Source: Escherichia coli
GTDB lineage: Bacteria > Pseudomonadota > Gammaproteobacteria > Enterobacterales > Enterobacteriaceae
Length of the DNA stretch: 64,000 nt
Direction: 5' to 3' (one strand)
NCBI RefSeq assembly: GCF_003991155.1
Contig: NZ_CP031293.1
The notes under the pieces were generated by a model. That model saw only the letters and a program-made list of their open reading frames with translations, searched no databases and was not told the origin of the DNA. Positions 12,378-12,423 of this stretch are shown here, one piece after another; position 1 is the stretch's first letter, and each line of letters starts with the position of its first letter. A program made the translations under genes and the position numbers.

Positions 12378-12423
12378 CAGCCCTGACATTGAGCAGCTTT
12401 TTCGCTGCGTAGTGTCAGGGCTG
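12378..12423 (-). terminator. Inverted repeat (11-bp perfect arms) downstream of malZ; candidate malZ terminator and insert boundary
   Basis: cagccctgaca ...24 nt... tgtcagggctg, between the malZ stop (12457) and the 481-aa ORF start (12271). Confidence 0.5.

Follow-up and report, generated by a model that had tools for sequence, protein, structure and literature searches.

A 46-nt nested inverted repeat at positions 12378-12423 of the window, by which we mean the whole 64,000-nt stretch of Escherichia coli DNA that was analysed, belongs to a strain-variable insert between acpH and malZ and lies 33 nt inside the malZ-side edge of that insert. Though real and strong, the hairpin formed by this repeat is ordinary, an uncharacterised stem-loop of the familiar terminator-like kind. 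We tentatively regard it, at somewhat less than an even chance, as a putative weak terminator and 3'-end barrier that belongs at once to the malZ 3' untranslated region and to the leader of an inserted orphan open reading frame (ORF), since both genes are encoded on the - strand. The features of the locus, in window coordinates, are as follows.

10224..10805, + strand: acpH, convergent with the orphan ORF across a 20-nt gap that contains no hairpin.
10806..12456, no strand: low-GC insert of ~1.65 kb, which replaces the 4-nt acpH-malZ spacer of insert-free genomes.
10826..12271, - strand: orphan ORF of 481 aa, ECs_0454 in O157 Sakai.
12272..12377, - strand: leader of 106 nt from the hairpin to the ORF ATG.
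12279-12282, - strand: GGAG ribosome-binding site of the orphan ORF.
12370..12377, - strand (malZ-sense): U-rich tail AAUUUGUU, with 5 U in 8 nt, directly 3' of the hairpin.
12378..12423: 46-nt nested inverted repeat, with outer arms at 12378-12388 (CAGCCCTGACA) and 12413-12423 (TGTCAGGGCTG).
12393-12397 (GCAGC) and 12404-12408 (GCTGC): inner arms, forming a nested 5-bp hairpin within the 24-nt spacer of the repeat.
12398-12403: apical loop TTTTTC, 6 nt.
12424..12456, - strand: 33-nt spacer from the malZ stop to the hairpin, the malZ-proximal end of the inserted DNA.
12457..14274, - strand: malZ (maltodextrin glucosidase), with its stop codon at 12457-12459.

Read along the - strand, the order of elements was malZ stop, 33 nt, hairpin, 106 nt, GGAG and ATG, a layout that agrees with an earlier description of this DNA (the sequence-only reading), in which the repeat had been placed between the malZ stop and the start of the inserted ORF. 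The same description had seen no comparable structure on the acpH side, and no significant fold was obtained there (z-scores of -1.2 and +0.3). GC content fell to 28-43% across 10800-12400 and was 52-58% in the flanks. The left edge of the insert may lie as far in as 10800, as the last two acpH codons differ between the insert-bearing and insert-free forms. A scan of the - strand over 12271-12460 returned no sigma-70-like promoter at its threshold.

Several further elements were observed in and around the insert. A 120-codon ORF on the + strand (12009-12371) overlaps the orphan gene at its 5' end in antisense orientation and stops 7 nt before the hairpin; it was rejected as a conserved gene, being open in eight of nine alleles but only 69 codons long in O157. 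Within the 5' coding part of the orphan ORF lies a perfect 22-bp palindrome that has no spacer (12126-12147, TTTTCATTTCC followed directly by GGAAATGAAAA). In some strains the queA-acpH spacer carries a 126-bp ERIC/IRU-like element with the core CCCCAGGAGCTTACATTAAGTAAGTGACTGGGGTGAGTG (L003 333-550, also in L018 and L019), which is missing from the window, where the queA-acpH spacer measures 92 nt.

The inverted repeat was confirmed as described, with perfect 11-bp arms in the arrangement CAGCCCTGACA-24 nt-TGTCAGGGCTG exactly at 12378-12423. It is far beyond chance, and the pattern appeared in 0 of 100 dinucleotide-preserving shuffles of the window. The spacer can also pair with itself, which lengthens the arms to 20 nt (85% complementary, with a loop of 6 nt), and on this extended-arm measure only one inverted repeat in the 64-kb window ranked higher. 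The basal stem consists of 11 perfect base pairs, seven of them G-C. On the - strand a 4x4 internal loop separates the 11-bp helix from the 5-bp helix, and on the + strand this internal loop is closed with G.U pairs. Folded alone as RNA, the hairpin reached -30.0 kcal/mol on the - strand and -35.3 kcal/mol on the + strand, with a fold z-score of -4.7 in its sequence context and of -5.6 and -5.9 as single-stranded DNA. Among ~42,600 sliding 50-nt windows covering the 64 kb, the hairpin took first place for stability on the + strand and, counted by locus, second place on the - strand. No second copy was found within the 64-kb window, and a search of Rfam gave no matching family.

Comparison of nine divergent E. 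coli alleles showed that the arms are invariant and that the differences are indels in the apical loop, which measures 6-9 nt depending on the allele. This invariance of the arms is not significant, as 13 variable sites in 185 nt give a probability of ~0.1 that none falls within the 32 paired nucleotides. Covariation in the stem was absent from the nine alleles, whose diversity is ~2%, and selection on the stem is not demonstrable because this diversity is too low. The fold was stronger on the + strand in every allele (-34.3 to -35.3 versus -29.0 to -30.0), a result of two or three non-Watson-Crick positions that are G.U on the + strand and C.A on the - strand; in the allele of strain MFDS1019527 the remaining A.G mismatch is also changed, to U.G on the + strand.

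When a 2.7-kb query spanning the locus was run on complete E. coli genomes, 5424 of 5426 were matched. The insert was present in 1126 of the 5426 genomes, about one fifth, O157:H7 included, and a contiguous acpH-malZ junction was found in 4295. The insert-free genomes have just 4 nt between the stops of acpH and malZ, and they lack the palindrome. The insert-free junction reads GCG TTA TAA aacg TTA GTT in a B-strain derivative and in strain CT01 (aacg being the form in A/B1) and GCG TTA TAA gacg TTA ATT in B2 ST131, and the insert-bearing junctions read GCG CTC TGA aac/ttcaag ... gatgct/TTAGTT. A 117-nt segment carrying the hairpin matched 1127 genomes, at one place per genome, and the match spanned its whole length in 1126 of them, a number equal to that of the genomes with the full-length insert. 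The sole extra, partial match came from strain HS-02 (NZ_CP172818.1, L007 940-2000), where ~1.1 kb of poly-T or AT-only sequence takes the place of the orphan ORF and the malZ-proximal arm is the only recognisable part of the hairpin; this apparent variant is probably a long-read assembly artefact in low-GC DNA.

Outgroup loci were taken from chromosomal sequence filed as plasmid records, some of these being whole mislabelled chromosomes. In Salmonella, Enterobacter and Klebsiella a peroxiredoxin gene follows directly after acpH (L014 4792-5394, L015 4710-5312 and L016 4710-5312, respectively), and in Salmonella a canonical bidirectional terminator, AAAAGGCTCGCcatcGCGAGCCTTTTTT, lies between this gene and the malZ stop (L014 5410-5437). 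Homology of the window to all three genera ends at the acpH stop; homology to Salmonella resumes inside malZ, and Enterobacter and Klebsiella have no malZ at this position. Alignment of the Salmonella and E. coli spacers was no better than alignment of shuffled sequences (p = 0.17). As the palindrome is absent from insert-free E. coli and Salmonella has a different terminator, an ancestral malZ terminator is excluded. The earlier suggestion that the repeat might be the malZ terminator thus fails for the ancestral element and stands for a possible present-day malZ transcript end, with a marginal U-tract; in particular, the insert-free genomes were compared for the same palindrome acting as the ordinary terminator of malZ, and with their stops 4 nt apart they lack it. 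It was also observed that E. coli has lost the peroxiredoxin gene of the outgroups and carries at that place either 4 nt or the orphan-gene insert. A remnant of the peroxiredoxin gene inside the insert was considered and rejected, the best match being 35 nt at 77% identity (E = 0.05) with no support at the protein level.

The ORF that makes up most of the insert is annotated as 'hypothetical protein' in O157 Sakai (ECs_0454), and neither Pfam nor NCBIfam returned a family for the 481-aa product. A HMMER pass over 1.84 billion representatives recovered its own cluster, fragments of that cluster and one weak PKD-repeat-like hit, and residues 102-158 weakly resemble a PKD repeat. An AlphaFold model of the protein was too poor to use (mean pLDDT 41). 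All named relatives are from E. coli, Shigella or unclassified Escherichia/Enterobacteriaceae isolates, with a deep split between two allele classes, one of 481 aa and the other, 'ES5', of 461 aa. Across the two main classes the protein length varies in increments of 4 aa (461, 469, 473 ... 493), and the ORF contains a 12-nt tandem repeat, CGCAATTTTTTC, in ~5 copies at 11372-11432. The frame was annotated as an intact coding sequence in every inspected carrier locus, and it evolves almost neutrally, with dN/dS values of 0.6-1.0 versus 0.05 for malZ.

Searches for homologues of the insert or its ORF on plasmids, in phages, on viral contigs and in other species found none, and two apparent plasmid matches to the insert were discarded as mislabelled 4.9-Mb chromosomes. 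The exact repeat pattern, sought in 100,044 species representatives, occurred in three unrelated metagenome-assembled genomes (MAGs) only, with different spacers, and gave no lead to a donor. The insert carries no transposase, integrase, terminal repeat or target duplication.

Two histories of the insert may be considered. The insert may be old and the 4-nt junction a deletion, as suggested by the acpH end of carriers (CTC TGA), which is similar to CTG TGA in the outgroups and unlike the TTA TAA of insert-free genomes, and by the two deep ORF allele classes. Alternatively, the insert may be a younger gain that is spreading, a view consistent with ORF dS values of 0.02-0.05 against malZ values of 0.06-0.31 for the same strain pairs, and with an insert-free junction that is common to B2 and A/B1 and bears lineage-specific SNPs. 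In strain MFDS1019527 (L020) malZ (2601-4418) is unusually divergent, with dS of 0.26-0.31 to other E. coli, and its orphan ORF (970-2415) and hairpin are near the common alleles (dS 0.03-0.05); either the ancestor of the insert is much younger than that of the flank, or the flank is a recombinant import.

The malZ promoter is MalT-dependent. Under the reading that we tentatively favour, transcripts from this promoter would reach, 33 nt past the malZ stop codon, a stem-loop that is part of the inserted DNA and would be transcribed as part of both the malZ 3' untranslated region and the ORF leader. The 11-bp GC-rich basal stem and the nested 5-bp hairpin would form, followed by the AAUUUGUU tail. 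Partial Rho-independent termination or pausing could then occur at the hairpin, the 3' end of malZ mRNA may be shielded from exonucleases and so stabilised, and the AT-rich orphan gene would be insulated in part, read-through from malZ being limited and not abolished.

Several observations point to such a role. The hairpin is a stable GC-rich stem-loop placed 33 nt after the malZ stop on the sense strand, and the malZ-sense strand has the only U-enriched flank (5 U in 8 nt versus 2 in 8 on the + strand). The palindrome is nested, which fits a folded strand and not two protein half-sites. The lack of a sigma-70-like promoter between the hairpin and the ORF fits leaky read-through. In the three unrelated MAGs mentioned above, the identical 11-nt arms are the stems of canonical T-run terminators. 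Salmonella has a terminator hairpin at the corresponding position, and the arms of the nine E. coli alleles do not vary although their loop length does. Insert-free E. coli showed no terminator-like site in the scanned locus, to ~700 nt downstream of the malZ stop, and the malZ-acpH pair of MG1655 has been listed among overlapping convergent 'excludons' (PMC12288877, 2025). Insert-free junctions of the K-12-like and B2 forms were located at L001 1004-1013 and L021 680-689, respectively.

Counting against a terminator are the marginal U-tract and the better fold of the + strand. The AAUUUGUU tail satisfies the tail rule of the scan tool (5 U in 8 nt), and its weighted score was -2.48, compared with -3.4 to -5.9 for the canonical terminator hairpins of the window, a level that is equalled or bettered at 26% of insert positions. 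The hairpin was not called by a consensus terminator scan. Measured against a compact intrinsic terminator, with an unbroken stem and a loop of 3-8 nt, it has the 4x4 internal loop on the - strand and an apical loop of 6-9 nt.

Comparison with known elements placed the hairpin near two familiar types. Like the Salmonella intrinsic terminator AAAAGGCTCGCcatcGCGAGCCTTTTTT, it is a GC-rich stem-loop that lies tens of nucleotides after the malZ stop in the sense direction. Unlike that terminator, it spans as much as 46 nt, is nested and has the 4x4 internal loop in its sense-strand stem, and the two share no sequence homology by the spacer alignment given above (p = 0.17); its U-tract AAUUUGUU is interrupted and scores weaker than those of the canonical terminators of the window (-2.48 versus -3.4 to -5.9). 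With REP/BIME elements it shares a stable hairpin between co-oriented genes, the lack of a strong U-tract and a possible function as a barrier to 3' exonucleases that sets expression of the upstream gene relative to the downstream gene. The REPs between malE and malF of E. coli stabilise the upstream mRNA. REP/BIME elements, however, occur in hundreds of dispersed copies, whereas the malZ-side hairpin is a single copy at this locus only. Membership in a REP-like dispersed repeat was rejected, given one copy per genome in 1127 genomes, no Rfam match and a sequence that, judged by eye, does not look like the REP consensus.

The strongest inverted repeat of the window lies elsewhere, at 54459-54511, where 21-nt perfect arms (ATATACTATAGGGGGGTATGC) surround TTGACA just upstream of a small ORF, and looks like a frmR-type operator/promoter. 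The malZ-side repeat resembles it as a long perfect intergenic inverted repeat upstream of a gene. The two differ in that the frmR-type palindrome brackets a TTGACA promoter element and has a spacer that is not self-complementary, whereas no promoter-like site accompanies the malZ-side repeat, which is a nested hairpin.

The partial-terminator reading has to be weighed against three other accounts. The most substantial of these, which we consider possible but rather unlikely, is that the hairpin is a passenger relic, a terminator or palindromic element that belonged to the upstream neighbour of the orphan gene in a donor, that came in together with the ORF and the region before it, and that has no selected role in E. 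coli today. A tail no better than the AT-rich background of the insert, arm conservation that falls short of significance and an orphan gene that is itself near-neutral (dN/dS 0.6-1.0) are all consistent with this account, and the youth of the insert alleles relative to their flanks (dS 0.02-0.05 versus 0.06-0.31 for malZ) would have left little time for decay. Arguing in the other direction, intact arms are kept by both deep classes of alleles, ES5 among them, for which ORF dS reaches 0.12-0.15, and the searches of plasmid, phage and other-species sequences brought up no donor. Moreover, a hairpin of -30 to -35 kcal/mol placed 33 nt past a stop codon affects RNA 3' ends and stability whether it is selected or not. 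The stronger + strand fold suggests another account, which we hold to be improbable, namely that the hairpin blocks or processes antisense transcripts that start at spurious promoters in the insert and run toward malZ. Its stability is higher on that strand in every allele, the MFDS1019527 allele converts the last mismatch to U.G on the same strand, and two promoter-like + strand sites (11776-11805 and 11829-11858) point toward the hairpin. These sites, however, are no commoner than in shuffled sequence, the strand bias rests on three wobble positions and would arise by chance with a probability that we estimate ourselves at ~0.04-0.13, the + strand flank GUGACUAA is not a U-tract (score -2.04), and O157 has only a truncated version of the + strand ORF whose end lies 7 nt before the hairpin.

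A role at the level of DNA, either as an operator to which a regulator of the orphan gene binds or as a recombination or boundary site through which the insert entered, appears equally remote. Perfect 11-bp arms 33 nt from the edge of the insert and upstream of the ORF would suit such a site, and 5 nt to the left of the repeat the sequence ATTTAAC was seen by eye to match the attC R'' consensus. A symmetric R' box is lacking, however, and the arm centres are 35 bp apart around a self-complementary spacer. The sequence-only reading had offered the repeat as a possible regulatory site for the new gene, and, given the nested palindrome and the lack of an overlapping or nearby promoter-like site, a protein operator is unlikely. 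It had also proposed that the repeat might mark the boundary of the insert, which in a mechanistic sense was not borne out: the acpH end has no partner structure or inverted repeat, the junctions show no target-site duplication, the repeat is a single copy per genome, and the insert encodes no integrase, transposase, other recombinase or regulator, its sole ORF being without a family. Specific candidates of this kind, an attC site, an IS200/IS605 end and a terminal inverted repeat end, were rejected for want of a partner end, target duplication, conserved core pair or recombinase. An 8-nt direct repeat flanking the hairpin (TAACAAAT, 12369-12376 and 12437-12444) was likewise set aside, as such a repeat is expected by chance in 18% of shuffles.

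A stronger form of the partial-terminator reading, which we consider doubtful, is that the hairpin acts as a leaky attenuator through which an orphan gene specific to E. coli becomes part of the maltose regulon. If this were true, the orphan ORF, before which no promoter is recognisable, would depend for its expression entirely on MalT-driven transcripts that read through from malZ, with the imported stem-loop setting the amount, and the insert would also break the malZ-acpH convergent overlap ('excludon') of K-12.

In summary, the hairpin alone matters little, and its value is that of a marker and a possible control point of a strain-variable locus in which an orphan gene occupies the very place that is taken by a peroxiredoxin gene in other enteric genera and by only 4 nt in the remaining E. 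coli. Whether malZ transcription ends at the hairpin or passes it decides if the orphan gene is maltose-regulated, and the same alternative decides if the malZ-acpH antisense overlap of K-12 is abolished in carriers. The insert, and the rewiring that it may bring to transcription of malZ, the orphan gene and acpH, is more interesting than the hairpin itself.
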